Positions 37,956 to 58,341 of a stretch of DNA of 64,000 nt are shown here, one piece after another (positions within the stretch are counted from its first letter, which is position 1; the number at the start of each line of letters is the position of its first letter). The stretch lies in the IMG/VR virus record IMGVR_UViG_3300040959_000809. One strand, written 5' to 3'. Below the pieces are notes generated by a model, which ran no database searches, was not told the DNA's origin, and saw only the letters and a program-made list of their open reading frames with translations. The position numbers and the translations under genes were made by a program. Source of the stretch: a virus.

Positions 37956-38573
37956 ATGGCAAACAACTTAAAAGAACTTACCTGGGAACATCACAAATCA
38001 GCAGAACGTACTGAATTTACTCAAATTTTGCTAGGTGGTGAAATTAGCCCAGAACTTTATCACAAATATCTTTGCAGCCAATTAATTTGTTATACTGCAC
38101 TTGAAGAGGCGGTGACATTGCCAACAGAATTTCAATCTGTATTCAGACAAACTGGATTAGAGGAAGATATTGCGGAATTAGAAAGCATTTATGGTATTGA
38201 ACCATGGGATGAACCTTTACCAGCGGTAATTGAATATGTTGAGCATATAGGTTATCTTGCGAAAAATAACGACAACAATGGTCTTTTGGCTCACCTATAT
38301 GTTCGCCATTTTGGTGATATGAGCGGTGGACAAATTATCAGAACCAAGGTTCCAGGCGATGGTACATTCTATGATTTTGATGACATTGATACATTAAAAT
38401 CTGGTATTAGAGAATTGTTGAATAATGATATGGCTGTAGAAGCTGGCATTTGTTTCCAATATGCTGAGCAAATGTTTGGTGAATTGCTGGATTGCACTCC
38501 ATATTATTTTAATACTGAATATGCAATGGCGGAAGGCTTACCATATGATGTCGCTGATGGTGAAGAAGAATAG
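37956..38573 (+). CDS. heme oxygenase (HemO/Ho1-like)
   Basis: LKELTWEHHKSAE (heme-ligand His), RQTGLEEDI, AHLYVRHFGDMSGGQII and FYDF; GGAGGA RBS. Confidence 0.9.
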   Translation: MANNLKELTWEHHKSAERTEFTQILLGGEISPELYHKYLCSQLICYTALEEAVTLPTEFQSVFRQTGLEEDIAELESIYGIEPWDEPLPAVIEYVEHIGYLAKNNDNNGLLAHLYVRHFGDMSGGQIIRTKVPGDGTFYDFDDIDTLKSGIRELLNNDMAVEAGICFQYAEQMFGELLDCTPYYFNTEYAMAEGLPYDVADGEEE

Positions 38574-38576
38574 CAT

Positions 38577-39254
38577 ATGGAAATAGTAAAAAAATTAAAT
38601 AAATTTACGGCCGACACAAAGACACTTTTTTCCAATAATATGGAAAGAACTATGCCCGATTATAGAGTCGAGCAATTCCCTGGATGGTCGGATCAGTTTT
38701 GGAAAAAGCCAGGATTGATTAGAAAATGTCATTTAAAAACAATAGATCTAATTGAAGAACGAAACCTTTGGCTTCTGCATATTAATATCTTTCCAGAGTT
38801 CGGGCTTGATTTGCCTATATTAGGATGTGATGTAGTTGCAGGGCCGAATAAAATTAGCGGTTCGTTCTTTGATTTCTCACCTATTATCAAACAACACCAT
38901 CCAATGATTAAGCACTTTGCAGAACAAACTGGTGGGGTGTCTTGGAAACGAGAAAGAAAATTGCCACCGTGGGCCACAAAAATCTTTTCAAACCATATGG
39001 TCGCTGCTGGTGCGGTTCGTAATGAAGAGGTGGATCAGTTCACACAGTTGACATATTCTCTTATGGAATACTATCTCTTACAGATGGAAACTCTTGCCGA
39101 GAATACTAAATTGGATACAAAGGCGGTCCAGAATAACTATTGCAAAAATCAGAAAAAGAATCCTAAGCTACACAGTTCAATTGCTGCAATGGGGATTCCA
39201 GAGCATAAGAAAGATTATTATGTAGATCGAATTCTTTTTGAAGAAATTGGTTGA
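38577..39254 (+). CDS. ferredoxin-dependent bilin reductase (PcyA/PcyX-like)
   Basis: RKCHL, LHINIFP, LPILGCDVVAG, FFDFSP, LPPWATKIFS and YCKNQKKNP; adjacent to heme oxygenase. Confidence 0.85.
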   Translation: MEIVKKLNKFTADTKTLFSNNMERTMPDYRVEQFPGWSDQFWKKPGLIRKCHLKTIDLIEERNLWLLHINIFPEFGLDLPILGCDVVAGPNKISGSFFDFSPIIKQHHPMIKHFAEQTGGVSWKRERKLPPWATKIFSNHMVAAGAVRNEEVDQFTQLTYSLMEYYLLQMETLAENTKLDTKAVQNNYCKNQKKNPKLHSSIAAMGIPEHKKDYYVDRILFEEIG

Positions 39255-44264: not shown

Positions 44265-45707
44265 ATGCCTCGTAATTTTAGAAACTATTTAAATGAAGCT
44301 TCTATATTAAAACCTGATTATGTAGAAGGGCATAAATTTGCCTGGAACGGTAAAGGTGTAAAGGAATTTGAAACCGCCGGTTATAAGCGCAATAATATAT
44401 TTACTGTAGTTACTGGTTCAGAAGGTGCTGTACTCATTGGAAGCCAAGATGCTGAGAATGAAAAATACCTACAAGGACCTGACGGAAAGGTATGGCACTT
44501 TAAAGGTGGTCTAAGTTTTAAGGCATCTTCTTTTACCCATGTTAAGGAATCTGGTGGGACACCCAGTGGCGCCGAATGGGAAAACCTTATTGTATTTGCC
44601 TATAATAATCTTAAAGGTACTGCTACAGATGAGGAAACAAAGGAAGTTGCTCTCAAATATTGGGAGCGTTATGGTAATATTTCGGATGAAATTGCTAAAA
44701 ACTTTGATACCAATCTTAAGGCAAAGCAGTTAGTACAAACAGGGCGTGGTTTGGGTAATGTCAAACTTGGAAAGTTTTGGAAAGCAGCTGGTGCGACAAA
44801 CAAGACACCAAAAACTGATATCGCATCATCTAATTTTGTGGAAAAGATTTCACTTAAAAAAGGTGGTGGATCTCAGCTCATTTCAGCAGAGAAAAAAGAA
44901 GCACTTGCAATCGTCAATGCTGCCCTATACGAAATGGGTGGTAACGCACCATTTGCCAAAAAGTTAACTAAGGCTATTGAAGATAAAATGACCAGACTTG
45001 TTACAACTGAGGCGGTCACAACCCTACAGAAACGCTCAATGATGGGTGATAAGGACGCTGGTGTGATTGATTATCAGAAAAAGGATAATGATCATAAGGA
45101 ATTGTCTGCAATGCTCAAGGAGGCCATTAGAGGGGCATCCGAAAGCAATAACTTATTCGCTCGACATATTGTACTAGAGGCAGCCACTGGTAATAATAAA
45201 TTTGGTGGTGCCAATTCAAAGGCAGCCGCAAATGTTTTAGGAAAATTTGATATTAGAACATTTGAGGTGGTTGTACAACCCATTTCATCTATTGATGATC
45301 CTATTATTATAGAGTATGCACAAAAGGTACGGCCATATGTTGCATTTAAAAAAGGTTCAGCGGGTTCTGCTGCTTATTCGGCAATGCGGATGGGTTTATC
45401 CGAAGGCTATACATTCCAAAAACTAGTCACCGAAGAACTTTCAAACATTCAAGGTTTCTATCTTACAGAGGATATTCTAAACGAAGGTCCTATGGGTATG
45501 CTTAGACGTGCTGGCACATTTGCCAAACGTGCAGGTGCCGCAGCTAAAAAAGCATTGGATGCAGCAGTTAAAAAGATCATTTTAAAATTAAAAAAGGTAT
45601 TTGCAGCCATTGCCAAAAAAGGTAAAAACATGATGGCAGCCCTTATGAAGTTCTTAGGGGTTGAGGTAAGTACTGCATCAGGAATTCCAGCAGAGGTAGG
45701 TCTATAA
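44265..45707 (+). CDS. putative head-packaged protein with a possible PD-(D/E)xK nuclease core and a cationic C-tail
   Basis: Leader MPRNFRNYLNE-A; TPKTDI...KISLKK; internal LVTE, YLTE and ILNE sites. Confidence 0.6.
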   Translation: MPRNFRNYLNEASILKPDYVEGHKFAWNGKGVKEFETAGYKRNNIFTVVTGSEGAVLIGSQDAENEKYLQGPDGKVWHFKGGLSFKASSFTHVKESGGTPSGAEWENLIVFAYNNLKGTATDEETKEVALKYWERYGNISDEIAKNFDTNLKAKQLVQTGRGLGNVKLGKFWKAAGATNKTPKTDIASSNFVEKISLKKGGGSQLISAEKKEALAIVNAALYEMGGNAPFAKKLTKAIEDKMTRLVTTEAVTTLQKRSMMGDKDAGVIDYQKKDNDHKELSAMLKEAIRGASESNNLFARHIVLEAATGNNKFGGANSKAAANVLGKFDIRTFEVVVQPISSIDDPIIIEYAQKVRPYVAFKKGSAGSAAYSAMRMGLSEGYTFQKLVTEELSNIQGFYLTEDILNEGPMGMLRRAGTFAKRAGAAAKKALDAAVKKIILKLKKVFAAIAKKGKNMMAALMKFLGVEVSTASGIPAEVGL

Positions 45708-46960
45708 TGAAAAGATTTAAAAACTATATTGCAGAGGAGGTCCTTACAGAGGATAAGAATTTGCATATGACGCACCTTGAGGATGCGGTCCTTGATGGGG
45801 GTGTGGTTGGTACTCGGAATGTTATTAACTATCTTCGTGCATTGAGAGACATGTTAGGTGGCAACACCAAGGCACCAGTAAATGTCTCTGTAAAATGGGA
45901 TGGGGCACCGGCAATTTTTGCTGGGAAAGATCCATCCGATGGCAAATTCTTTATTGCCAAAAAAGGTGTTTTTAATAAGAATCCCAAAATATATAAAACA
46001 GAAGCTGAAATTGACAATGATATATCAGGTGACCTTGCGTCAAAGTTTAAGGTTGCTTTAAAAGAGTTTAGTAAGCTCGGCATTGAAGGAGTGGTACAGG
46101 GTGATTTCCTATATACGAATGATGATTTACAAACGACGGCTATTGATGGAGAATCGTATATTACTTTCCATCCTAATACGATTGTTTACGCGGTACCAAC
46201 AAAAAGCAAACTTGCAAAAACAATTTCAGGATCCTCGATCGGCGTGGTCTTCCATACAACATACCGAGGAGATTCATTTGAAACAATGTCAGCAAGTTTT
46301 GGAAAGGAGATTGTACCTTCTCTCAAAAAAGTCAAATCGGTCTGGGCGGTAGATGCAGTATTTGAAGATAAGTCGGGCAATGCCACATTTACAGCTGCAG
46401 AGACAAAAGCATTAAATTCTATTCTAACCAAGGTAGGCACACTGTTCAGAACAATTAAAAAGGAAACCCTAAACGGTCTTTCAAAGGCAAATAATGAGGA
46501 ACTTAATACACGCGTAAATGTATATGTAAATCAAAAGGTCCGAGCTGGAGAACGTATTGGAAACCCTAAACAGTTTGTGGCTGGTCTCACAAAATACATC
46601 AATGACTATTACGGCAAAGAGGCAGATAAAAAGAAAACCCAGCGCGGTAAAGACACACAGACCGCAAAGCGTGACTCGGCTCTAGCCTATTTTGCAAACA
46701 ATAATAAAAAAGAAATAGAACGCTTATTTGAAATGTATAACCTATTAGTTGATGCTAAACTTATGGTTATTTCAAAATTAAACCATGTCGATGGTCTACA
46801 AACATTTCTTAAAACCAATAAAGGTTTTGAGGTTACTGGACAGGAAGGCTTTGTCGCCATTGATCATATGGGTAAAAATTCACTTAAACTTGTAGATAGA
46901 CTACAATTTAGTAAGGCGAACTTTAGTACAGAATATATTAAAGGCTGGGAGAAAAAGTAA
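45707..46960 (+). CDS. putative head-packaged ligase-fold covalent nucleotidyltransferase
   Basis: Leader MKRFKNYIAE-EVLTE; SVKWDGAP (motif I KxDG), VQGDF, QEGFV (motif IV) and LKLV (motif V). Confidence 0.65.
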   Translation: MKRFKNYIAEEVLTEDKNLHMTHLEDAVLDGGVVGTRNVINYLRALRDMLGGNTKAPVNVSVKWDGAPAIFAGKDPSDGKFFIAKKGVFNKNPKIYKTEAEIDNDISGDLASKFKVALKEFSKLGIEGVVQGDFLYTNDDLQTTAIDGESYITFHPNTIVYAVPTKSKLAKTISGSSIGVVFHTTYRGDSFETMSASFGKEIVPSLKKVKSVWAVDAVFEDKSGNATFTAAETKALNSILTKVGTLFRTIKKETLNGLSKANNEELNTRVNVYVNQKVRAGERIGNPKQFVAGLTKYINDYYGKEADKKKTQRGKDTQTAKRDSALAYFANNNKKEIERLFEMYNLLVDAKLMVISKLNHVDGLQTFLKTNKGFEVTGQEGFVAIDHMGKNSLKLVDRLQFSKANFSTEYIKGWEKK

Positions 46961-47190
46961 TGGCTTGGGTAGCAGTACCAGGATCTAATGGAATTTGGGA
47001 ATATGATAATGCGGCCAGCACAGCTGATGCTGATACATATGATGATGCAAATGGTACTGTTACTGGAGGAATTAGATCATTTACACCTCCGGGCGGTTCT
47101 GCTCAATTCACCTATATCAAGACAAGAAAAGTAGGTGAGACAATCGTTCGCGGAGAACTCAATAAAAACTATTATGACGGCAAAATTTAA
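46960..47190 (+). CDS. small hypothetical, likely virion-associated protein
   Basis: 76 aa, coupled, in the late region. Confidence 0.55.
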   Translation: MAWVAVPGSNGIWEYDNAASTADADTYDDANGTVTGGIRSFTPPGGSAQFTYIKTRKVGETIVRGELNKNYYDGKI

Positions 47191-47206
47191 GAGATAGGTA
47201 AGAGCA

Positions 47207-48514
47207 ATGGCACAATTTAACAAAGATACAGGTGAATTTCTCAATAATAATAAAACACTATATGAAGTTGTTATGGTTGCTGGCCAAGCCGGGCCCTCAA
47301 CATATGTTAATACAGGCAATCTAAACACATCTTCTGATTCTTTTGGCAGAATGAGAGTCTCAGAACCACTTACTTTGTTTGATAGTAGTCATAGATACGC
47401 CGACAATGGACTTTTTTCAGAGAGCATAACAGGAACGGCATCATCAACATTTAACGGTGATGCAGGACTTATTGACTTAGATGTTGGTTCAAGTTCCGGT
47501 GATGAAATTCTCAGAGAAACCAATAAGACATTTGCATATCAGCCCGGCAAAAGTCTATTGATTCTTTCAAGTTTTATGCTTGCTGCAGCAAAAACTAATC
47601 TAAGACAGCGAGTTGGTTATTTTGGTTCTGAAAATGGTATCTTCTTAGAACAAGACGACAGTAATATATTAGTGGTATTGCGAAGTAAAGTAACTGGTAG
47701 TGTAGTTGACACAAAAATTGCAAAGGCAAACTGGAACGTTGACTCGTTAGATGGTACAGGCCCAAGTGGAGTGACTTTAGATTTGACTAAGGTTCAACTT
47801 ATGTGGTTGGACGTTGAGTGGCTTGGTGTTGGTAGTGTGCGTTTTGGTTTTGTGGTCAATGGACAGTTTATTCCATGTCATGTATTCCATCATGCAAATT
47901 TAATTGATTCCACATACATGACAACTGCATCTCTACCATTAAGACAAGAACTTACAAATACTGGTGCAACTTCTGGTGCAAGTCAGGCAAAACAAATTTG
48001 TAGCACTGTTATTAGTGAAGGTGGATATGAACTAAGAGGTAGACAACACGCCATTGGAACTCCAATTACCAGTGCATATCAATTGGCCGATGCCGGAACA
48101 TATTATCCTGTAGTTTCAATTAGACTGAAATCTGCAAGACAAGATGCAATTGTTATTTTGACTGCATTGTCTCTATTGGGGGTTGGTAATGGTGTAAACT
48201 TCTCATGGAAAATTGTTGCAGGCGGAACAGTGACAACAGCTTCTTGGACAAGTGCTGGTTCCGATTCTTCAGTCGAATACACCTTATCTGGAACTGCGCA
48301 TGATGGCGGTGGTAGAGTTCTTGCACAGGGGTATTTGAATTCCTCTAATCAAGGTTCGCCCACAATGGATATTCTAAAAGAGGCACTATTCAAGTTTCAG
48401 TTAGAGAGAAATTCATTTGCTGATGTTATGGAACCACTCTCGTTTTTGGTTGCTCCGGCAACTGATGATGAAGATATTTTTGCCTCGCTGGATTGGGAAG
48501 AGGTTACACGATAA
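47207..48514 (+). CDS. beta-rich putative virion structural protein (lectin-like)
   Basis: DSFGRMRVSEPLTLFDS...YQPGKS...RVGYF...WLGVG; G/S/T-rich. Confidence 0.6.
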   Translation: MAQFNKDTGEFLNNNKTLYEVVMVAGQAGPSTYVNTGNLNTSSDSFGRMRVSEPLTLFDSSHRYADNGLFSESITGTASSTFNGDAGLIDLDVGSSSGDEILRETNKTFAYQPGKSLLILSSFMLAAAKTNLRQRVGYFGSENGIFLEQDDSNILVVLRSKVTGSVVDTKIAKANWNVDSLDGTGPSGVTLDLTKVQLMWLDVEWLGVGSVRFGFVVNGQFIPCHVFHHANLIDSTYMTTASLPLRQELTNTGATSGASQAKQICSTVISEGGYELRGRQHAIGTPITSAYQLADAGTYYPVVSIRLKSARQDAIVILTALSLLGVGNGVNFSWKIVAGGTVTTASWTSAGSDSSVEYTLSGTAHDGGGRVLAQGYLNSSNQGSPTMDILKEALFKFQLERNSFADVMEPLSFLVAPATDDEDIFASLDWEEVTR

Positions 48515-48532
48515 TTTATTATAGGTTATATT

Positions 48533-49246
48533 ATGAAAAATTTAATTTATCAGTATTACAGTAGTCCAGATAAAGATCGAGTGAAAAAAGATAGGCCCGG
48601 TGTATATATAAATGCCGGTAATTATCACGAGTACTCTAAACAATCCATATCAGCATATGCCAAAAAGCATGGTGTTTTATATAAATTTATGGACCACAAA
48701 TTACCTGACGACATCCCTTTATTCTATGGTATTTTTCTACCATTTCTAGAGGGCTGGTGTTGGGATTATGATAATATTTGTTTTATTGATAGTGATATTA
48801 TGGCTACCGTAAATAGTGGAAATGTATTCGACTATGCTGGCAAACAAGGTCTTACATTACATAAAATGGATGCTTCAAAACATCGATTTGATTCCAAGCG
48901 AGCATTTAAATTCTTTAATGAAATTAACGGCTTCTTTAATAGTGGTGTAGTGATCTTTCCAAGATCCGAATATGAAAATTTCATACATTTTGCATCCACA
49001 TTAAAACAAAGAGACTTAAACAGAACCTCTGTCGAGAATAGTCTTGGCGGTTTTGATCAAGGTTTATTAAATACCTGGATAGCAAATCATAAACGCTATA
49101 ACGAATTGCCAAAGCAATATAATTATCATATGGGTAGATATCAAAAGCCCGAAAGATGGTACGATGGCGTGAGCCTAATACACTACCATCGAGAGGACAA
49201 AGCATTAATGGAACCAGAGTTTCAGGATGAGAGAATACTTAAATGA
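48533..49246 (+). CDS. GT-A (GT8-like) glycosyltransferase
   Basis: FIDSDI (DxD), FNSGVV, DQGLLN, YN and LIHY. Confidence 0.75.
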   Translation: MKNLIYQYYSSPDKDRVKKDRPGVYINAGNYHEYSKQSISAYAKKHGVLYKFMDHKLPDDIPLFYGIFLPFLEGWCWDYDNICFIDSDIMATVNSGNVFDYAGKQGLTLHKMDASKHRFDSKRAFKFFNEINGFFNSGVVIFPRSEYENFIHFASTLKQRDLNRTSVENSLGGFDQGLLNTWIANHKRYNELPKQYNYHMGRYQKPERWYDGVSLIHYHREDKALMEPEFQDERILK

Positions 49247-49824
49247 TGGGTGATTTAAAATTTACAACTTGTGGGGATTTTATGCAAGAGCAAGATACTT
49301 ATATTGACCAGTATAAAGAATTTTACAATAACGGCGGTTACGAAAATAATGATCCCGTGATGAGAGCAAAAGATGACATTAAAAAGATGCTAAAAAAGTT
49401 CGACTGTAAATCATTATTAGATTATGGATGTGGACATGGACTACAATATTCTCAGCACAAATTAGATCAGTATTGGGATATTAAAAAACTTACGAAATAT
49501 GATCCAGGTGTACAAGAATTTGAAATAAAGCCTACTGGGACATTTGATGCAGTCATTAATACTGATGTTTTAGAGCATATTCCTGAGGATTATGTATATG
49601 ATGTGATTGCAGACATTTTTAGTTATGCTGGTAAGTTTGTATACTTTAGTATTGCCACAGATCTGGCAAAGGCAGTATTACCGAACGGGGAAAACGCTCA
49701 TTGCACATTAAAACCACATTCTGAATGGGTTACCATTATTGATGAAATGCGTGGGGATATTCCTACATTGGTAAAATGTACTGGCCGTAATCGCTCAAAG
49801 ATAGGGAGCACGTTACTGGAATGA
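49243..49824 (+). CDS. class I SAM-dependent methyltransferase
   Basis: LLDYGCG, KYDPG and DVLEHIP. Confidence 0.85.
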   Translation: MMGDLKFTTCGDFMQEQDTYIDQYKEFYNNGGYENNDPVMRAKDDIKKMLKKFDCKSLLDYGCGHGLQYSQHKLDQYWDIKKLTKYDPGVQEFEIKPTGTFDAVINTDVLEHIPEDYVYDVIADIFSYAGKFVYFSIATDLAKAVLPNGENAHCTLKPHSEWVTIIDEMRGDIPTLVKCTGRNRSKIGSTLLE

Positions 49825-50339
49825 TTAGAAAGGTTATACTCATTGGTAATGGTCCGTCAAGTAAATTTTATTCACAATTAAATCATTTAGATGGCGGAAT
49901 GACAGCTGGGTTTAACCTTACTGAACACAATGTAGATATTATTTTTGTAAGCGATAAAAAAGTTATTAATAAACTTGAAGGCAATCCAAAGGTACATGTA
50001 TTAAAAAAGCCTTTCATGACAAAAAAAGGTGGGCTTAATCTTGCATGGAATACAGGCCATAATGCATATAACTACCTAAGAAAAATGGGTTATACTCATT
50101 TTGAAATGTATGGTTTTGATTTGCTCTTTTCAGACAATTGGAGTTCGTCGACAGATCGAGTATTTAATAAGGATCTGTGGGTTCAACAGGCGATTGAGGT
50201 TGACATTAATAACGAATGGATTCAATACTGGAATGAGATAATTGACACACCTACAATCATTCATGCTCCTGTCGGGGCAAAACTTTATGTAAACTCTAAA
50301 CATGCACAAATAGAACACCATGAAAACTTTAATTATTAG
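49821..50339 (+). CDS. putative glycan-modifying enzyme (MAF/sialyltransferase-like)
   Basis: VILIGNGPS, NTG and MYGFD. Confidence 0.5.
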   Translation: MIRKVILIGNGPSSKFYSQLNHLDGGMTAGFNLTEHNVDIIFVSDKKVINKLEGNPKVHVLKKPFMTKKGGLNLAWNTGHNAYNYLRKMGYTHFEMYGFDLLFSDNWSSSTDRVFNKDLWVQQAIEVDINNEWIQYWNEIIDTPTIIHAPVGAKLYVNSKHAQIEHHENFNY

Positions 50340-50868
50340 TATGCCTAAATCAGGCACATATCTATGTAGTAATTTACTTTTAGAGTTTGGAATCAGACAA
50401 ACCTTACTACATTTAAACACAGGTACCTACCAGCAATATACATCTGATATAAACGATACCAGAAAAAATCCCCAAAAATACACACACCAGTTGAACTTTG
50501 AAAAGTCAATAGAGTTATTTGGTGATAATGAGTTTGCGGTCACCCACGTACCATATAATAAGAAAAGAGCTCAATTGCTGAAGAACACAAAGAAAATACT
50601 TTTGGTGAGAGACGAAAAGGAAATTGTAGAATCATATCAAAGATGGAATGAAAAAACTGATAGACCTATGCCAGCGTTAAATTTAGGTGATATAAAGAGA
50701 TGGGAGCAAGAAACTAATATTTTTAAGCTTTCATTTAATGATATGATAAATAAAAATGTAGAACAGATTGATAGGTTACAGAACTATCTTTTTAATAGTA
50801 TAAAGTTTGATAGTCTGATGTGTATTAAGAATGCAATTGAATTGCCATCAATGACAAAAATGAGGTAA
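50320..50868 (+). CDS. sulfotransferase-like protein
   Basis: ISMPKSGTYL (5'-PSB loop), VTH and LLVRD...S. Confidence 0.65.
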   Translation: MKTLIISMPKSGTYLCSNLLLEFGIRQTLLHLNTGTYQQYTSDINDTRKNPQKYTHQLNFEKSIELFGDNEFAVTHVPYNKKRAQLLKNTKKILLVRDEKEIVESYQRWNEKTDRPMPALNLGDIKRWEQETNIFKLSFNDMINKNVEQIDRLQNYLFNSIKFDSLMCIKNAIELPSMTKMR

Positions 50869-50872
50869 TATT

Positions 50873-51544
50873 ATGGTAATATGTGATAAACATAATTTTA
50901 TATTTCTGAGAATTCCGAAGAATGCAAGCTCTAGTCTTGCAGATTTTTTCGTGAGAAACTTTTGTGATCAGAATGATATATGGACAGAGGTAAACGATTG
51001 TGGTATTAGAGACAATAATGTAAGCCCAGAGTTGATTAGAAAATATAGACATCAGTACAGGTTTATCCACCTAATGCTTCAGGAACTAGTGGATAATAAT
51101 GTCGTGACCCCGACTACGTTGGCTGATAAGGAAATCATAAGTGTACTTAGAAACCCACATAGGCGCCAATTATCACTTTATTTCTTTTTAAAGCGAGGAC
51201 AAAGAAAATCGCCTGAGGAATTTAGACATATTTTTAGAGATGGTTATCATGAAACGGATACTTCAAATAGGATTCTCCAAACAGATTATCCTAAATTAAA
51301 AGGTGTTGACAAAGGGACATGGTGGATATATAATAGACTTAATGAACACTTGCAAGAGTTTTGCTCCTCCAAGGGCATGACAGGAAAGTTAGAATTAAAA
51401 CAATATAAAAACGGATATACACCGAAACAACAAGAAATCTTTGAACAGTATTATGACCAAAAAACACTTGATGCTGTTAAAAAATATTATGAAAAGGATT
51501 TTGACAAACTTATGGAATTAGGAACGGGATTGGAACTAGCATGA
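50873..51544 (+). CDS. sulfotransferase family 2-like protein
   Basis: FLRIPKNASSS, LRNPHRRQLSLY, and C-terminal YYEKDF. Confidence 0.75.
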   Translation: MVICDKHNFIFLRIPKNASSSLADFFVRNFCDQNDIWTEVNDCGIRDNNVSPELIRKYRHQYRFIHLMLQELVDNNVVTPTTLADKEIISVLRNPHRRQLSLYFFLKRGQRKSPEEFRHIFRDGYHETDTSNRILQTDYPKLKGVDKGTWWIYNRLNEHLQEFCSSKGMTGKLELKQYKNGYTPKQQEIFEQYYDQKTLDAVKKYYEKDFDKLMELGTGLELA

Positions 51545-52221
51545 ACGAAATACAAAAAGCTTATATTTTAAGAATTGACACCGATCTATCACGAGAGTAT
51601 GCTCAAATTACCGCTGATTCTTGTGATACAATAGGACTACCTTACGAATATCACGAGGGCTTCTATAACATGGATCCAAATGACGCCTGGAATACCATAG
51701 GCTTGAGTAGACATATCAAGCGTAATAACTGGGTTCCAGCTGCACAACTTTGTACGGCTGGTCATGCAGCTATTTGGAAAAAGATTGCAGACAATAATGA
51801 AACTGCAATTATTCTTGAGCATGATGCTGTAATGCTACACGATCCTCGGAATGTTAAAATTGGTGATAATAGAATTGTATGTCTAGGATACAAGTTAAAG
51901 GATCCAACTAGATATGACCATGAAGCCGCAGGTGGTCCTAGAGGACTTAGACAAATATCTGGCCACGAAGGTGCTCATGCTTATGCCATCTCGGCGGCTA
52001 CCGCTAGGTCGATGCTCAAGGAAATTGAGGAAAATGGTGTAAGGTCAGCGGTTGACAATCTATACTTTCTCATCCAACGTGCAAATTATACAAAGATTCC
52101 TTTGGCTATTATGGACCCAACAGCTGCAATTGGTTGGCTGCGAGACTCTACAATTTGGGAGGAACCAGCAGAAAATAATTATGCCTTTGTAGCATCATTT
52201 GAAAGAAATCTGGTAAATTAA
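51541..52221 (+). CDS. GT25-like glycosyltransferase
   Basis: CTAGHAAIW, ILEHDA and GAHAYAIS. Confidence 0.65.
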   Translation: MNEIQKAYILRIDTDLSREYAQITADSCDTIGLPYEYHEGFYNMDPNDAWNTIGLSRHIKRNNWVPAAQLCTAGHAAIWKKIADNNETAIILEHDAVMLHDPRNVKIGDNRIVCLGYKLKDPTRYDHEAAGGPRGLRQISGHEGAHAYAISAATARSMLKEIEENGVRSAVDNLYFLIQRANYTKIPLAIMDPTAAIGWLRDSTIWEEPAENNYAFVASFERNLVN

Positions 52222-52224
52222 ACC

Positions 52225-52884
52225 ATGTCGTTTCTGTTAAAGAATGATGTTATATCATTACACGTACCAAAGACGGGTGGTAAGGCATTTGAGCAGTGGA
52301 TTACATATGGTGCCAGGGTGGTTAAGGAACGAATTGTCAATCAACATTATTCATATTCTGAACTAATAAATGTTCACCCTGAGTATACTGATAACGACTA
52401 TATTATGATTATCAGAAATCCATATGCAAGAATTGTAAGTTGGTACCACCACAGTAGAGATGTGTATACATATAGTATTAATAGACCAGCACAAAAGGAC
52501 AAGAACCATCCACCAGAATCACCTAGGTTTAGCCCATCATTTGAAGATTGGGTACGAAAGGAGGACCTAAGAGATTTTCCAGCATTTACAAAAAACAGAA
52601 CGGCTGGATCTTTTGGAACAATGAAATCATATTTACACCCATCTGGTAGGATGCCAACATATCTATTACACCAGGAAACATTAGCAGATGATCTAAAACC
52701 ATTGAGAGAACTATGGGAAACAGACGCACCATTAACAACTGAAAATAAATCGTCTGTTTCCTTTTCAGGTAATAATAATTGGAAAAATGAGTTTAAATCG
52801 GATTATACAAAGGACTTTATATACGAATACTTCAAGGAAGACTTTGAAACCTTTGGATATGATAGAAAGTTCCCCACCGATTAA
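52225..52884 (+). CDS. sulfotransferase family 2-like protein
   Basis: LHVPKTGGKA, IRNPYARIVSWY and YFKEDFETFGY. Confidence 0.8.
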   Translation: MSFLLKNDVISLHVPKTGGKAFEQWITYGARVVKERIVNQHYSYSELINVHPEYTDNDYIMIIRNPYARIVSWYHHSRDVYTYSINRPAQKDKNHPPESPRFSPSFEDWVRKEDLRDFPAFTKNRTAGSFGTMKSYLHPSGRMPTYLLHQETLADDLKPLRELWETDAPLTTENKSSVSFSGNNNWKNEFKSDYTKDFIYEYFKEDFETFGYDRKFPTD

Positions 52885-52890
52885 GTAAGT

Positions 52891-52898
52891 TATAAATA
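52891..52898 (+). promoter_or_regulatory. T4-type late promoter TATAAATA
   Basis: Exact motif 34 bp upstream of 52933. Confidence 0.7.
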
Positions 52899-52932
52899 TA
52901 TCTATAAAGTAGCATAGGAATCGAGACATATA

Positions 52933-55242
52933 ATGGCCGATAAAAAGAAGAAAAAGCCCCCAGTCAAAAACTTTAAAGAATTTGACCCGGCCCAATTCAT
53001 TGAAACTGAACCAAAATTAACAGAAGCCGTTAAAAAAGACACGGTCGTTATTAGTTTCGGCAGAATGAATCCTATTACAGTAGGACATGAAAAGCTTGTT
53101 GGTAAGGTTTTAAATGTTGCTCAAAGCCAAAAGGCGGATCCTGCTATTTTTCTTTCTCACACAACTGATCCTAAAAAGAACCCTTTAACATATGAGGAAA
53201 AACTATTTTTTGCTCAAAAGGCCTTTGGCAAAGTAATTAAGAAATCACCTGCAAGGACAATTATTGAGGTGGCAAAACAACTACAGAATATGTATAAGAA
53301 TATGACTGTGGTAGTTGGTTCTGACAGAGTAAAGGAATTTGAAACCTTATTAAATAAATACAATGGAAAAGATTATAAATTTAATACTATTAATGTAGTT
53401 TCAGCTGGTGAAAGAGACCCAGACTCGGAAGGTGTTTCCGGCATGAGTGCATCCAAGATGAGATCGGCTGCTGCCGATGATGACTTTAAAAGTTTTAAAC
53501 AAGGTCTTCCTAAAAAATTACAATCAACCGCAAAAAAGATTTTTGATACAACGAGGCAAGGTATGGCATTAGATGAAGAAACTTTAGAAGAAGCAGTTCT
53601 ATCGAGAGCCGCACGACGGAAAAGAGCTCGACTCCTTAGAAGATATAAAGGTAAAATTGCTCTTGCACGCAAAAAGGCAATGCGTAGACGTGCCACATTA
53701 GACACTCTAAAGAAAAGAGCTCGGAAAACTGCACGTACTATGATCAAGGATAAATTGGCAAAGTCCAAAAGATTTGCTGATCTTGATCCTACTGCAAAAA
53801 TTGCTATTGAAAAGAGACTTGAGAAAATGCCATCGGCGCGTCTTGAAAGATTGGCTCGACGGATTCTCCCTTCAATTAAACGTAAGGAAACGGACCGTAT
53901 GCAACAAAGAAAAAAGAATGAGTCCTTAAATATTGATGAACAATTTGAAATGTTTATGGAAGAAAGAACACCGTCAGGTCGTTTTGGAAAGAATACCCAT
54001 GATATCAAGGTAAAGGTACCAGGTAGAATTAATAAAGCTATTAAAAAGGGAAGCCCGGTTTGGGACCAACGTGAGAACAAACCTCACCAGGAAACCAAGA
54101 AACACCTTTCCGATATAATGAAAAAGCATGGTGTAAAACCATCTAAGGCAAAACATTATCATAATGACATGACAGGTCATTATATGATGGCACATCCAAG
54201 TAATGATCCAGCAAAAGTTCATGCCGCGGCAACTGAATTTGAAAAAACAGTAGGTAAGGCGGTTCGTACAGAAGCCAAAGATGGTGATGGTGTCAATATC
54301 GTAAGGGACCGTGAATTTAAGGGTAAACCTATGAAGAAAGAGCCTGGTACAATAGGCATTAAATTCTCTGATATGAGAAAGTCTAAGTGGGCCAAGGACT
54401 CTGATACCAATCCAAAAAGATCCAAAGCTATGGGTGAAGCCACAGATCTTGAGGAAAAGCTAAAAGCCTCCGATGATATGGGCACTTGGATTAAGGATTT
54501 CCAGGATTCTGATGCACCACAGTTTAAAGACAAATCAAAAGAAAAGCGTAGACAAATGGCTATTGCTGCTAAATTGGATGCCGAGGATGATGTTAAAAAG
54601 GAATCGGTTCAAAAGGGAACTCATATTTCAGACGATCCAAAGGCTATGGCTAGAATAGAAAAATTCTTCAAAGGTTTGAAGCATCAGCCCAAAGGCAAAG
54701 ATATGAAAGATATGTTCGGGTTCATGATGAAACAAATGGGCTATAACCCTAAAACCGGCCTTAAAGAATATAATGAAGATGTAGATCTTGATGAAGCAGC
54801 TCATGATCCTAAACATGTAAAAATGGCTATAGGCATTGCATCTGATAAAAGATATAAAGGTGGTGACATGACTGGTGCAGTCAAGTCCATCGAAAAGATC
54901 AAAAAGGGACTATCTGATCATCCACAAGTTTCTGCTGTACTAAGAAGACAGAACGAAGAAACCAAAACGGAATCGTTGGACGAAATGTGGGGAACATATG
55001 TTTCAAAACGACCTCACATGCTATTGGATAAGAACAATAAGGTTAAATTTGACAAGCGCTTTAAAATGTTTAAAAAGCAAAATGAACTTGAAGAAGAATT
55101 TACACTTAATGAAGAAATGGATTTGGTAAATGATCTTGAGAATTCAGTAAATGAGTTTGTAGAATCTAATGAATTCAAGGAAGCAACTGAACCAAAACTT
55201 TCGTTTAAGGATATCCAAAAAAGAATGGGAAAGGCAAAGTAA
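52933..55242 (+). CDS. putative head-packaged polyprotein with an N-terminal cytidylyltransferase-like (TxGH) domain
   Basis: KNFKEF...KLTE-A leader; FGRMNPITVGH, VVGSDR and MSASKMR; then modules separated by TLEE, NIDE, DLEE, DLDE, SLDE and TLNE. Confidence 0.7.
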   Translation: MADKKKKKPPVKNFKEFDPAQFIETEPKLTEAVKKDTVVISFGRMNPITVGHEKLVGKVLNVAQSQKADPAIFLSHTTDPKKNPLTYEEKLFFAQKAFGKVIKKSPARTIIEVAKQLQNMYKNMTVVVGSDRVKEFETLLNKYNGKDYKFNTINVVSAGERDPDSEGVSGMSASKMRSAAADDDFKSFKQGLPKKLQSTAKKIFDTTRQGMALDEETLEEAVLSRAARRKRARLLRRYKGKIALARKKAMRRRATLDTLKKRARKTARTMIKDKLAKSKRFADLDPTAKIAIEKRLEKMPSARLERLARRILPSIKRKETDRMQQRKKNESLNIDEQFEMFMEERTPSGRFGKNTHDIKVKVPGRINKAIKKGSPVWDQRENKPHQETKKHLSDIMKKHGVKPSKAKHYHNDMTGHYMMAHPSNDPAKVHAAATEFEKTVGKAVRTEAKDGDGVNIVRDREFKGKPMKKEPGTIGIKFSDMRKSKWAKDSDTNPKRSKAMGEATDLEEKLKASDDMGTWIKDFQDSDAPQFKDKSKEKRRQMAIAAKLDAEDDVKKESVQKGTHISDDPKAMARIEKFFKGLKHQPKGKDMKDMFGFMMKQMGYNPKTGLKEYNEDVDLDEAAHDPKHVKMAIGIASDKRYKGGDMTGAVKSIEKIKKGLSDHPQVSAVLRRQNEETKTESLDEMWGTYVSKRPHMLLDKNNKVKFDKRFKMFKKQNELEEEFTLNEEMDLVNDLENSVNEFVESNEFKEATEPKLSFKDIQKRMGKAK

Positions 55243-55736
55243 TGAATAGCTTTAAAGATCATCTTGCAGAAAAGAAAAATGCAGAAGATCCGGATATCGG
55301 AGACCGAAAAGGATCACAACCTTCCGAATATCATAAAGGAATTAAGTCTGTTTCCACCAAGGTCGCTCGTGATCAACACTTTAAAAAGTATGCCAAAAAA
55401 GGTGAAGATGGCGAGGCGGACAGTCAAGCAAATTATAAACCTGCACCAGGTGACGCCACTGCTACAACAAAACCTTCAAAGCACACAAAACGCTATAAGG
55501 CTATGTTTGGAGAAGATGCAACAGAAGGCTTAAAGAAAAAGGCCGAGAAAAGCGGTATGCCTCTTGGAGTACTTAGGCAGGTTTACAACCGTGGTGTTGC
55601 TGCATGGAAATCTGGTCATCGCCCTGGCACTACTCCTCAGCAATGGGGCTTTGCAAGAGTTAATAGCTTTGTGACCAAATCAAAAGGGACTTGGGGCAAG
55701 GCAGATAAGGATTTAGCAGCCAAGGTGGGGGGCTAA
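55242..55736 (+). CDS. putative head-packaged protein
   Basis: Leader MNSFKDHLAE; C-terminal domain LKKKAEKSG...VYNRGVAAW...QQWGFARVNSF. Confidence 0.7.
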   Translation: MNSFKDHLAEKKNAEDPDIGDRKGSQPSEYHKGIKSVSTKVARDQHFKKYAKKGEDGEADSQANYKPAPGDATATTKPSKHTKRYKAMFGEDATEGLKKKAEKSGMPLGVLRQVYNRGVAAWKSGHRPGTTPQQWGFARVNSFVTKSKGTWGKADKDLAAKVGG

Positions 55737-55738
55737 AA

Positions 55739-56371
55739 ATGCAAAACTTTAAATCGTTTATTTCTGAAGCCGGTGGTGCTGGTGAGTGGGGAGCAAAGAA
55801 ACTCACAAAGAAATATAAAAAAGACACCCCAGGCGAATCCTCTGATTTAAATGAAAGCGCATTAAAAGCACTTAGGGTTGCGACCAAAGCTCATGCAGGA
55901 CAAACACGTAAAAGTGGTGGCAAGTATATTGAGCACCCAAAAGAGGTTGCTCGATTTGTAAAGCAATTTAAAAAGTCAAATAATCTTTCGGCGTTAGTAC
56001 AGGCAGCCTATCTACACGATACTATTGAAGATACTGATACAACATATGATGATTTGGTTAAACAGTTTGGTGCTCTTGTAGCTGATATGGTTCAGGAATT
56101 AACAACTGATAAAGCTGCCTCTGATGCTATTGGTAAAGGTGAATACATCGCTGGTAAGATGGCTAAAATGTCAAGTTGGTCATTAGTTATTAAACTTGCG
56201 GATAGATTAGCAAATGTACAAGACATTGATACTCGGCCTGCAGATTTCCAAAAGAAATATGCTGCACAGACTGCACTTGCCATTAAACGTCTCCGTAGTG
56301 ATAGGTTCTTGAGCAAAACACATAATAAAATCATCTCGGCAATTGAGAAAAAGATTAAAGAGTATGTTTAA
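55739..56371 (+). CDS. SpoT/Mesh1-type HD (p)ppGpp hydrolase with a capsid-targeting-like leader
   Basis: Leader MQNFKSFISE-A; AHAGQTRKSGGKYIEHPKEVA, AAYLHDTIEDT and IKLADRLAN. Confidence 0.88.
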   Translation: MQNFKSFISEAGGAGEWGAKKLTKKYKKDTPGESSDLNESALKALRVATKAHAGQTRKSGGKYIEHPKEVARFVKQFKKSNNLSALVQAAYLHDTIEDTDTTYDDLVKQFGALVADMVQELTTDKAASDAIGKGEYIAGKMAKMSSWSLVIKLADRLANVQDIDTRPADFQKKYAAQTALAIKRLRSDRFLSKTHNKIISAIEKKIKEYV

Positions 56372-56747
56372 GTTTAAAAAATATGTATCTGAAGGCCTCA
56401 AGCTTAAACTCATTAGAGGTAAAGGCGAAGACGTCTTAAAAATAAAAGATAGTAAAGAGAAGTCTTGGGTTGAAGTGCGTGGAAAACCTAACTTCGAAAC
56501 TAAGTTTGATCCAAAAGATCCTCTACATAAAGCAATTGCAGCTTTAAGAAAATCTGTTAATGTGTCTGAGCTTGTGAATGGAGAGCCTGTAGGCATTAAT
56601 CCAAACCATCCTGACGGTAAAAAAGCTCTGGCAGCAATAAAGAAGTTGATGAATGAAACTAACGGCTTTCAACCAGCAATGATGTTACATGAGCCAACCA
56701 AAAAGAAAATATTGTCTAAACAAAAAAAGAATAGAGAAGAAAAATGA
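56364..56747 (+). CDS. putative head-packaged protein
   Basis: Likely start is ATG 56364; leader MFKFKKYVSE-G. Confidence 0.65.
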   Translation: MFKFKKYVSEGLKLKLIRGKGEDVLKIKDSKEKSWVEVRGKPNFETKFDPKDPLHKAIAALRKSVNVSELVNGEPVGINPNHPDGKKALAAIKKLMNETNGFQPAMMLHEPTKKKILSKQKKNREEK

Positions 56748-57439
56748 AAAGATTTAAGCATTATATTTCAGAAGGTAATGCTAAAGGTGGTTACCATTAT
56801 GAAGATCAGGTTAATAGTAATCTGAAAAAGCATGGAATGCAGAAAAAGGACCAAAAGAGTGCTGGAGCATCAAAGGATGCACCTGATGGAACAATTCGGT
56901 CCAAGGATGGTAAACATCACAATCTTGAAATTAAACAGAATAAAAATGCTATGTATGGACAAATTGGTATGCACCACGATGGCAAAACATGGAAGGTAAA
57001 GGATAAATCCAAAAAGGATTATCCTGAAACTGCAAAACATATTGAAAAACATGTAGTACCTCATATGAATAAACATATGGGAAAGCCATCCGGTGATTAT
57101 CACAAGGATAAAGAAGTACACGGTAACCATTATATCCCACATAAGGGCACTCAGCCCATCCGTGATCATTATGCAAAAGATAGAAACACACATTATATTC
57201 AGATTGGCAAATCCGGTCTCCACCATATGTCAAAGGATCATGGTAAACTTGGTACTCATGAATTAAACGGAGATACTCGTTTCCGTGTACGTGTTAAATA
57301 CCATGGAACAAATAAAAAGACCAACAAGGTAAGTTATAGCCATACTGTTACGATGGAATTAAAGAACCATAAAGCATCACATATAGATCTGGACCATCAT
57401 TCAGAACATTTAGGTAAAATACACGGCAAACATGAATAG
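56744..57439 (+). CDS. putative head-packaged, His-rich PD-(D/E)xK-like nuclease
   Basis: Leader MKRFKHYISE-G; YEDQV...APDG...NLEIK. Confidence 0.6.
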   Translation: MKRFKHYISEGNAKGGYHYEDQVNSNLKKHGMQKKDQKSAGASKDAPDGTIRSKDGKHHNLEIKQNKNAMYGQIGMHHDGKTWKVKDKSKKDYPETAKHIEKHVVPHMNKHMGKPSGDYHKDKEVHGNHYIPHKGTQPIRDHYAKDRNTHYIQIGKSGLHHMSKDHGKLGTHELNGDTRFRVRVKYHGTNKKTNKVSYSHTVTMELKNHKASHIDLDHHSEHLGKIHGKHE

Positions 57440-57716
57440 TTTTAAAACATATATTCTTGAAGCAAAGACACCCAAATGGAAAAAGGCAGGGCCGGATGGT
57501 GAGCAGGAAATTACCTTTCCTACAGGTAGAAGGTTTAAAATAGAAAAACAACTTGATCAAAATGAGCGACATCAACGTGGCGAATATAAGGTCATGGAAT
57601 GGGATTCCAAAACTCGGGATTGGGAATGGCATGAAACATATAGTCCAAAATGGTATGCTAAAGAGAAGGTAATGGAACTAGGCAAGTATGACCAAAAGGG
57701 AAAAAAGGTAGGATGA
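57432..57716 (+). CDS. putative head-packaged protein
   Basis: Leader MNSFKTYILE-A. Confidence 0.65.
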   Translation: MNSFKTYILEAKTPKWKKAGPDGEQEITFPTGRRFKIEKQLDQNERHQRGEYKVMEWDSKTRDWEWHETYSPKWYAKEKVMELGKYDQKGKKVG

Positions 57717-58087
57717 AAAAGTTTAAACAACATTTACATGAATCTAACTTTGGTCTATATGAAGGAACCACAGTACCACTTGATCAGCCGATGATTGAAA
57801 TTGATGAGGAACAGGAACCAGAACTTAATTCACCAAAACGTGGCGGCAAGAAAAAGTACATTGTATATGTCCGGGATCCTAATACAAAGAATATAAAAAA
57901 GATCCAATTCGGAGACGACACGGGATTGTCTGCAAAGATTAATGACCCAGGTGCTCGGAAGAATTTTGCAGCCAGACATAATTGTGCTGATAAAACAGAT
58001 AAAACCAAGGCTGGCTATTGGGCATGTAGATTACCAAAATATGCCAAACAATTAGGTCTTAAAGGCGGAGGTGATTTCTTTTGGTAG
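57713..58087 (+). CDS. putative head-packaged protein with a basic His/Cys-containing domain
   Basis: Leader MKKFKQHLHE-S; RKNFAARHNC...KAGYWACR. Confidence 0.7.
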   Translation: MKKFKQHLHESNFGLYEGTTVPLDQPMIEIDEEQEPELNSPKRGGKKKYIVYVRDPNTKNIKKIQFGDDTGLSAKINDPGARKNFAARHNCADKTDKTKAGYWACRLPKYAKQLGLKGGGDFFW

Positions 58088-58341
58088 TCCCGTATAACGA
58101 CACCAACATGGGGCTCAGAATATTTGACGTACTAGCCGAGAGCTCAGAGTACGTATGGCACCGTGATAAGGAAAGTAGAGAAATAGAAGTTATTTCTGGT
58201 GAGGGTTGGCAGTTTCAAGTTGAGGATTGCTTACCTTGGTTATTAACTAAAGGGATGAAGTTTACAATAGAGTCAGGTGTTTACCATAGGCTTTTAAAGG
58301 GTGTAGATAATCTTGAAATAAGAATAAAAGAAATAACTTAG
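58081..58341 (+). CDS. small cupin-like protein
   Basis: VWHRD...GWQFQ...YHRLLKG. Confidence 0.55.
   Translation: MVVPYNDTNMGLRIFDVLAESSEYVWHRDKESREIEVISGEGWQFQVEDCLPWLLTKGMKFTIESGVYHRLLKGVDNLEIRIKEIT

Follow-up and report, generated by a model that had tools for sequence, protein, structure and literature searches.

A small alarmone hydrolase behind a predicted T4-type capsid-targeting leader in a family of marine T4-like phages

The internal proteins of bacteriophage T4 (IPI, IPII, IPIII and Alt) begin with a leader of 10 residues, in which positions 4 and 7 are aromatic and positions 8–10 read I/L-x-E. This capsid-targeting sequence (CTS), MKTYQEFIAE, is removed by one cut (PMC8442874), and amber-suppressor genetics assigned residues 4 and 7 to targeting and residues 8 and 10 to processing; fusion to the T4 CTS leads to the packaging of any protein and to its delivery into the host (PMC9026906). 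T4 propeptides are 10–20 amino acids (aa) long (PMC5694885). In the T4 record, IPII and IPIII start with MKTYQEFIAE and IPI with MKTFKEF...ITE. Cleavage occurs at an [L/I]-x-E motif before a small residue, the mature proteins are basic (the IPs have a pI of 8.9–9.5), the loci are variable and cassette-like, expression is late, and the protease is gp21 (Peptidase_S77). One of these proteins, Alt, is an injected enzyme.

Phages are also known to encode enzymes of alarmone metabolism. Stand-alone small alarmone hydrolases (SAHs), which are single-domain HD hydrolases of the RSH family, are encoded by Salmonella phage PVP-SE1 (PbcSpo) and by SSU5 (PaSpo), and one is annotated in Pseudomonas phage Adele (PMC7229694, PMC12846349). 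The PVP-SE1 and SSU5 enzymes counteract every toxSAS toxin tested, and it was proposed that they let an incoming phage bypass alarmone-based defence (PMC7229694). Alarmone synthetase domains that travel in the capsid have been predicted as well, in polyvalent and MuF proteins of phages (PMC5512222, PMC12226406); these RelA/SpoT NTase domains, like those of the MuF polymorphic toxins (Apk2), reside in multi-module proteins that are cut by proteases (PMC5512222, PMC12226406, PMC10083569). Finally, the T7 portal protein Gp8 is a virion component that acts against restriction by the stringent response. It binds and inhibits RelA/SpoT late in infection, does not degrade alarmones and is not a dedicated cargo (PMC13483052).

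Here, we describe a 64,000-nucleotide stretch of viral DNA from IMG/VR (the window) that encodes an SAH domain preceded by what appears to be a leader of the T4 type. The source phage is an uncultured marine T4-like myovirus: the window, with a GC content of 38%, encodes DNA polymerase gp43, topoisomerase II, gp46/47, UvsX, the gp41 helicase and gp32. The closest cultured relatives are cyanomyoviruses, with 59% identity for a virion protein and 44% for the DNA polymerase, although psbA was not found in the related genomes. A megablast search with 23 kb of the window against 50,697 phage records gave no match. Two assemblies that contain the hydrolase (HD) gene were rejected as a guide to the host, as their metagenome bins are labelled Saprospiraceae and Rhodobacteraceae, respectively; since these labels conflict, the bins probably contain mis-binned phage contigs. 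The locus includes the following elements:

44265–46960, + strand: two leader-bearing genes, encoding a 480-aa protein (MPRNFRNYLNE) and a 417-aa DUF6267 protein (MKRFKNYIAE), just upstream of a virion structural protein gene (47207)
52891–52898, + strand: T4-type late promoter box TATAAATA, 42 nt upstream of 52933, the start of the first gene of the HD operon
52933–55736, + strand: first genes of the HD operon, encoding a cytidylyltransferase-like polyprotein (769 aa) and a DUF5824 protein (164 aa, MNSFKDHLAE)
55722–55732, + strand: strong Shine-Dalgarno-like element AAGGTGGGGGG, read from the sequence, its end lying 7 nt before the ATG
55739–56371, + strand: predicted pro-enzyme open reading frame (leader, linker and SAH domain), complete, with an ATG start, 210 aa, pI 9.58
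56364–58087, + strand: genes for four further basic proteins with the leader (127, 231, 94 and 124 aa), immediately 3' of the HD gene, with overlapping start and stop codons

The HD gene sits in a tightly packed row of genes on one strand (52933–58341, +) with overlapping stop and start codons. The cytidylyltransferase-like and DUF5824 genes are a single fused gene in the related locus L103, and in P0140 they are fused to the HD module as well. The position of the HD gene shifts within these arrays of leader genes: it follows gp41 in L103, and the cytidylyltransferase gene in the window and in G002, a related genome of 183 kb (91% complete).

The predicted mature protein and its sequence motifs are located as follows:

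55856–56368, + strand: predicted mature HD-domain hydrolase, residues 40–210, pI 9.67, all-helical
55892–55939, + strand: HAGQTRKSGGKYIEHP, residues 52–67, with the nucleotide-binding R-K and the first metal-binding His (H66)
56012–56035, + strand: LHDTIEDT, residues 92–99, with the HD metal ligands and the ED catalytic pair
56192–56215, + strand: KLADRLAN, residues 152–159, with the last metal-binding Asp (D155) and N159

A sequence-only reading of this DNA had described a complete set of SpoT/Mesh1 HD-hydrolase motifs, and this description holds, as all three blocks are there (H52-A-G-Q-T-R-K...Y63..H66-P67, L92-H-D-T-I-E-D-T99 and K152-L-A-D-R-L-A-N159). Pfam HD_4 (PF13328) matched residues 44–178 with an E-value of 2.8e-16 and 60 bits, against a gathering cut-off of 27.2. 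Only HD_4/HD domains were matched in the 210-aa protein, which has a single catalytic domain without synthetase, TGS or ACT domains. The NCBIfam model spoT_relA matched via its hydrolase region (E 2.2e-25), and the NCBIfam models for long RSH proteins matched, below cut-off, over only their first ≈140–160 positions, the N-terminal hydrolase part. In an alignment of 64 family members, no variation is seen at H52, Q55, R57, Y63, H66, H93, D94, E97, D98, D155, R156 or N159; these include all metal-binding and catalytic residues (H66, H93, D94, D155, E97 and D98), along with R57 and N159.

The best sequence match among solved structures in the PDB was human MESH1/HDDC3 (1.6e-16), followed by the hydrolase domains of mycobacterial, staphylococcal and Thermus Rel and of SpoT (1e-15 to 1e-12) and, more weakly, by the Pseudomonas aeruginosa SAH (PaSAH), RelH and the (p)ppApp-specific Aph1. 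An AlphaFold2 model of the protein has 11 helices and a mean pLDDT of 86.8, rising above 90 over residues 39–210. When this model was compared with known structures in Foldseek, MESH1 and PaSAH were retrieved with a TM score of 0.82 each and a probability of 1.00, followed by RelH and SpoT. The predicted fold (TM 0.8) and the H..HD..ED..D..N constellation are the same as in MESH1/HDDC3, PaSAH and Corynebacterium glutamicum RelH, at about 27–29% identity. However, these cellular enzymes have no propeptide, and the single cellular SAH measured, from a metagenome-assembled genome (MAG), is acidic (pI 5.8), in contrast to the basic phage domain. By every computable criterion, in sequence and in model, the protein appears to be a catalytically intact single-domain SpoT/Mesh1-type SAH, an assignment that we consider well supported, and it is probably active as an alarmone-type pyrophosphohydrolase.

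The substrate specificity of SAHs is promiscuous and hard to read off their sequence (PMC10083569), and our attempt to settle (p)ppGpp versus (p)ppApp specificity by sequence gave no decision. The signature of Aph1 is an Asp (Asp24) in place of the base-stacking Arg and a compact, tetramer-forming fold of eight helices (PMC10083569). This signature is absent here: R57 is invariant at the position of Asp24 (mapped by motif rather than by superposition), the HD family has the larger number of helices seen in (p)ppGpp-capable SAHs, and 7smg, the structure used for the comparison with Aph1, was a much weaker match (E 5.6e-8, TMq 0.49) than MESH1 or Rel. The top Foldseek structures were the complexes of MESH1 with NADPH and with PAPS, and a MESH1-like promiscuity towards these compounds is possible. 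These matches, and the promiscuity of SAHs in general, raise the alternative that the protein is packaged and injected, but that its relevant substrate is a non-classical one, such as NADPH, PAPS or another 3'-phosphorylated nucleotide, e.g., the signal of a defence system. We consider this alternative distinctly unlikely, since the Rel/SpoT nucleotide-binding R-[K/S] motif and N159 are kept in the family, R57 occupies the position that differs in Aph1, and the NCBIfam and PDB matches to bona fide Rel/SpoT hydrolase domains equal those to MESH1 in strength. Furthermore, a synthetase gene adjoins one branch of the family: in L104, a 250-kb contig, a gene that encodes a RelA_SpoT synthetase domain (29.4 bits; Pfam cut-off 27) comes 2 nt after the SAH gene. 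This adjacency lends independent contextual support to alarmone chemistry. Among the neighbours of the HD gene in the window, no RelA_SpoT domain was found, and a gene order as in the toxSAS–SAH (type IV) toxin-antitoxin pairs, with a synthetase gene next to the SAH gene, was seen only in the distant relative L104.

The N-terminal region that precedes the domain contains the following elements:

55739–55768, + strand: CTS-like leader MQNFKSFISE, residues 1–10, ending in I8-S9-E10, with a predicted cut before A11
55769–55846, + strand: Lys-rich disordered linker, residues 11–36, specific to the window copy and its 97%-identical twin
55847–55855, + strand: L37-N38-E39, second predicted prohead-protease site, directly before helix 1 of the HD domain

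The leader had been proposed to target the capsid, and a comparison with T4 bears this out at the level of sequence: F4 and F7 coincide with the T4 targeting positions, and I8 and E10 with the processing positions. Defined strictly as M-x(1-3)-F-[KRQ]-x-[FYHW]-[ILVM]-x-E, the motif heads 8 of the 97 genes in the window, where 0.0043 would be expected, and each of the eight lies on the + strand, within 44265–58087. Information content over 13 non-HD and 81 HD-family leaders is highest at positions 1, 4, 5, 7, 8 and 10. Position 4 is F/Y in 100% of the leaders and position 7 is Y/F/H in 85–92%, while E10 is found in 85% of the non-HD leaders. In part of a more distant branch of the HD family, position 10 is Asp or some other residue, and these members appear to rely on a later L-R-E site. 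Some homologs of the hydrolase start with MKTFKKFISE, and a gene of cyanophage S-RIM8 that adjoins its virion structural protein gene starts with MKSYNEFISE. The resemblance of these N-termini to the T4 CTS suggests that the label is common to distant T4-like lineages, although a match over only 10 residues could have a convergent origin.

A shared N-terminus might also be a feature of translation initiation or of the mRNA, or a recombination handle for the shuffling of cassettes, in which case the SAH would be an ordinary non-virion enzyme. Initiation can benefit from early codons rich in AAA/TTT, cassette exchange at the T-even IP loci is believed to be helped by conserved CTS DNA, and the genes clearly shuffle between positions. 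However, the leader codons differ while the classes of residues are kept (ATT/CTT/GTA/TTA at position 8 and TAT/CAT/TTT at position 7), and the DNA upstream is unrelated. Moreover, fused homologs (L063, L057, L058, L022, P0020 and P0121) contain in-frame copies of the motif at the junctions between their modules, where there is no translation start and the initiator Met is replaced by Leu, for example in L063 (...LLKKFRKYTE-MNE-MKSFKKYIVE-DTLNE-NALKAL...) and L057 (LLKRFRTYAEE...SLNE-NAL). The internal, non-initiating copies and the codon variation indicate that the signal acts on the protein and not on translation, and an origin of the leader in translation or mRNA was rejected on these grounds. 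The conserved positions are also those of targeting and cleavage in T4, and the motif heads a gene in the interval between portal and protease (see below). We thus regard a role unrelated to packaging as very improbable. Paralogy was likewise rejected as the source of the shared N-termini, because the downstream domains (HD_4, DUF5824, DUF6267 and proteins with no hits) are unrelated. That the N-terminus is a T4-type targeting and processing leader is well supported by these comparisons, and it probably directs incorporation into the prohead as well as processing.

The sequence-only reading had also pointed to a second site that would release the bare catalytic domain. In the AlphaFold2 model, L37-N38-E39|S40 falls exactly on the boundary between a disordered segment (pLDDT <50, residues 9–34) and the confidently predicted domain, which begins at residue 39. 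At the junction column just before helix 1, [LIVMF]-x-E is found in 56 of 64 family members, and the segment that precedes the domain is 8–18 aa long in 59 of the 64, similar to the T4 propeptide lengths given above. The release of the bare domain by a cut at this site is a well-supported prediction. In most homologs, the linker region comprises 0–8 residues, and the extra Lys-rich insert of 26 residues is present only in the window copy and its twin, from a Tara MAG. Close homologs mostly read leader-DT-LNE|S, and in the simplest members the Glu of the leader itself forms the junction, as in L103 (MISFIQYIRE|DSAAAL). The junction also stays with the HD module inside polyproteins, including the 865-aa P0140, which contains the cytidylyltransferase and DUF5824 modules in addition. 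In two cultured phages, Vibrio phage pv27 and BcepSaruman, the SAH has no leader and no junction site and begins at helix 1. The leader and junction are therefore additions made in this lineage rather than requirements of the fold.

The leader is confined to clustered genes in late-type operons and to one gene of the head module. All 10 proteins of the cluster are basic (pI 9.36–9.97), whereas 10% of the other genes in the window have a pI above 9.3 (p = 4e-6). In G002, the strict motif occurs in only 5 of 581 open reading frames, all five of them in the syntenic cluster. A variant leader, MKTFKNLIAE, is found on a 559-aa gene of G002 located between the portal and Peptidase_S77 (gp21) genes, with gp22 and gp23 alongside; this slot is the position of gp67/gp68 in T4. 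Two genes of the window have counterparts here: a module in gene 58392 is 49% identical to part of the 559-aa head-module protein, and gene 46960 is 70% identical to a small gene adjoining gp21. The Peptidase_S77 prohead protease was detected in G002 (121 bits) and in a second related genome, G003 (143 bits), both of which carry a leader-tagged HD gene. The gp21-type protease was seen in these relatives only, because the head module lies outside the 64-kb window.

The octamer upstream of the HD operon, TATAAATA, is the T4 late-promoter consensus. It is found at −38 to −42 before the heads of the syntenic leader operons in the window, G002 and L103, and in G002, 29 of 42 boxes lie 8–100 nt upstream of a gene start on the same strand, compared to 6.2% of positions. 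The raw count in the window is no higher than chance (8 versus 6.5 expected), and the weight given to the box derives solely from its conserved position and from the gene-upstream enrichment in G002. Between 52500 and 60600, sigma-70-like promoters were not in excess and a terminator inside the operon was not found; the scans for promoters (17 versus 22.9) and for terminators (3 versus 6.2) were uninformative.

Late-type expression would place the pro-enzyme in the producing cell as well, where a late lowering of (p)ppGpp could be useful in itself. This leads to another explanation, that the protein is a late cytoplasmic alarmone hydrolase that keeps (p)ppGpp low and GTP available for assembly and DNA packaging, and that its incorporation into heads is incidental, minor or a by-product of the leader-tagged cassette array. 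In addition to the promoter context, such a role would agree with the need of T7 for alarmone suppression before lysis (PMC13483052), and with the absence of a leader from the validated SAHs of PVP-SE1 and SSU5 and from the nearest cultured homologs, which presumably act after expression. However, the leader and the junction L-x-E are kept in >100 diverged members and at every genomic position of the gene, and the domain is strongly basic, as in internal proteins embedded in DNA. The leader and the basicity count against a purely cytoplasmic role, as a cytoplasmic enzyme needs neither. On balance, we find this explanation unlikely.

The hydrolase family comprises 464 members at E <1e-5, all of them metagenomic and largely marine (Tara, JGI), and several are found on contigs of 100–250 kb. 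There are 76 related loci in IMG/VR. The cluster names (NCBI/JGI/Tara) gave only generic annotations. No leader-tagged form was found in cultured phages, in which the tblastn matches were leaderless and at most 46% identical.

The tagged hydrolase resembles the T4 internal proteins in its 10-residue leader, which is aromatic at positions 4 and 7 and closes with I/L-x-E, in its cleavage motif, its basic predicted mature form, its variable, cassette-like locus, its late-type promoter context and the presence of a gp21 protease in the lineage. It differs from the T-even internal proteins in its cargo, as an alarmone hydrolase is not known among them. The window copy furthermore carries a second predicted processing site, beyond a linker of 26 aa, and the array is much larger than that of T4, with at least eight tagged genes plus polyproteins. 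Like the stand-alone phage SAHs, it is a phage-encoded single-domain hydrolase, but these enzymes, including the pv27 and BcepSaruman homologs, lack leader and junction and are thought to act after they are expressed. The polyvalent and MuF systems share with it the principle that alarmone-metabolising enzymes travel in the capsid and enter with the DNA, and that a protease divides multi-module proteins; however, they present synthetases (toxins) on MuF or polyvalent scaffolds, whereas here the opposing hydrolase would be presented on a T4-type CTS.

From these comparisons, a model can be proposed. The pro-enzyme, composed of a 10-residue T4-type CTS, a disordered Lys-rich linker and a single-domain SpoT/Mesh1-type SAH, would be transcribed late, together with a battery of leader-tagged basic proteins. 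The leader would dock it on the scaffolding core of the assembling prohead, and the gp21-type serine protease of the phage would cut after E10 and probably also after E39, leaving a basic hydrolase of 171 residues (pI about 9.7) among the packaged DNA. At the next infection, the hydrolase would be ejected with the genome and would remove the 3'-pyrophosphate from (p)ppGpp and/or (p)ppApp ahead of all phage gene expression, which would blunt the stringent response or an abortive-infection defence based on alarmone synthetases (toxSAS/CapRel-type). Taken as a complete chain, from packaging and processing to injection and action on entry, we see the evidence as evenly poised. The original proposal of a pre-packaged enzyme that cancels alarmone signalling in nutrient-limited marine hosts is thus supported in part: comparative evidence stands behind the identity of the enzyme and the CTS-type leader with its L-x-E junction, while packaging, cleavage, injection, substrate, timing of action and the link to nutrient-limited hosts are steps that we infer.

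Its suggestion that a virion-delivered alarmone hydrolase would be new holds within the open-access full-text literature, in which we found no report of a virion-targeted enzyme of this kind. Phage alarmone hydrolases are known, as are virion-borne synthetase domains (PMC7229694, PMC5512222, PMC12226406) and the T4 internal proteins, but the combination of such a hydrolase with internal-protein delivery is unreported in the literature searched. If the model is correct, this would be the first virion-delivered anti-alarmone enzyme.

At the level of the family, we tentatively suggest, at slightly less than an even chance, that marine T4-like phages represented by >460 metagenome sequences pre-load their capsids with a processed alarmone hydrolase, so that the erasure of alarmones would be their first biochemical act, and that the hydrolase is one cargo of an injected, CTS-addressed toolkit. 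Such a modular toolkit would also include a nucleotidyltransferase, the DUF6267 protein and polyproteins, and would be far richer than the T-even internal proteins. The T4 capsid-targeting system would then be an ancient and general address label that distant marine relatives use for the delivery of enzymes, the rule M-x-x-F-K-x-[Y/F]-[I/L]-x-E would predict injected effectors in viral metagenomes, and the system would offer a natural template for engineering protein delivery in phage heads. An injected hydrolase would disarm the stringent response or the alarmone-synthetase abortive-infection systems before viral transcription, a time window that is not covered by expressed phage SAHs or by the portal-based inhibition of T7. 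Such a head start would be of particular importance in the oligotrophic ocean, whose hosts are frequently starved.

The cytidylyltransferase-like, DUF5824 and HD-hydrolase modules are freely split, fused and re-tagged. In the window, the cytidylyltransferase-like and DUF5824 modules are two separate genes (52933-55736), and the DUF5824 gene carries a leader of its own, MNSFKDHLAE. They form a single gene of 678 aa in the metagenomic locus L103 (15800-17836), and likewise one gene in phrog_3041, while in the fused homolog P0140 both are joined with the HD module in one polyprotein of 865 aa.

In another metagenomic locus (L104:9001-10333; JGI 3300075147, a 250.6-kb contig), a member of the HD hydrolase family is followed after 2 nt by a gene of 253 aa, the product of which starts with MSELKRYILEE and contains a RelA_SpoT alarmone-synthetase domain (29.4 bits against a cut-off of 27). 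The two genes form a predicted phage SAH-SAS pair, arranged in the same HD-then-SYN order as in the long RSH enzymes. The two products possibly constitute a toxin-antidote pair.

The related genome G002 encodes a basic protein of 559 aa between the portal and the gp21 protease (L094; 163779-165458, minus strand). This protein starts with MKTFKNLIAE and consists of modules with acidic linkers between them (E-L-D-E|A and E-L-E-E|A), and one of these modules also occurs in window gene 58392. The protein appears to be a head-module polyprotein occupying the slot of T4 gp67/gp68. The prohead proteases of cyanophage S-RIM8 (L080:24994-25638; MKLIAEE...EFIAEE) and G002 (162838-163524, minus strand; MKLITEVFNE) themselves have cleavable motifs resembling the capsid-targeting sequence at their N-termini, paralleling the LIE-9 site noted in T4 gp21.

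Among the other window genes, a leader-bearing protein of 417 aa (45707-46960) represents a full-length member of DUF6267 (E = 4.9e-108); its L103 homolog is apparently split into ORFs of 72 and 235 aa. Genes resembling glycosyltransferases, methyltransferases and sulfotransferases (48533-52884; phrog_24759, phrog_3347) form a block between the two leader-gene clusters, downstream of the virion structural protein gene.

Copies of the HD gene (97% and 92% identical) were also present in metagenome bins labeled Saprospiraceae (L096, G001:C88) and Rhodobacteraceae (L097), respectively. In all likelihood, both are phage contigs wrongly assigned to bacterial MAGs; the labels are not evidence on the host. 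At 37956-39254 in the window, a heme oxygenase gene (PF01126, 6.5e-25) adjoins a ferredoxin-dependent bilin reductase gene (PF05996, 4.4e-19). This pair of genes is present in L103 as well, yet psbA was absent from G002 and G003, two near-complete genomes of relatives. The window phage, a carrier of bilin-synthesis genes, may be a non-cyanobacterial T4-like phage.
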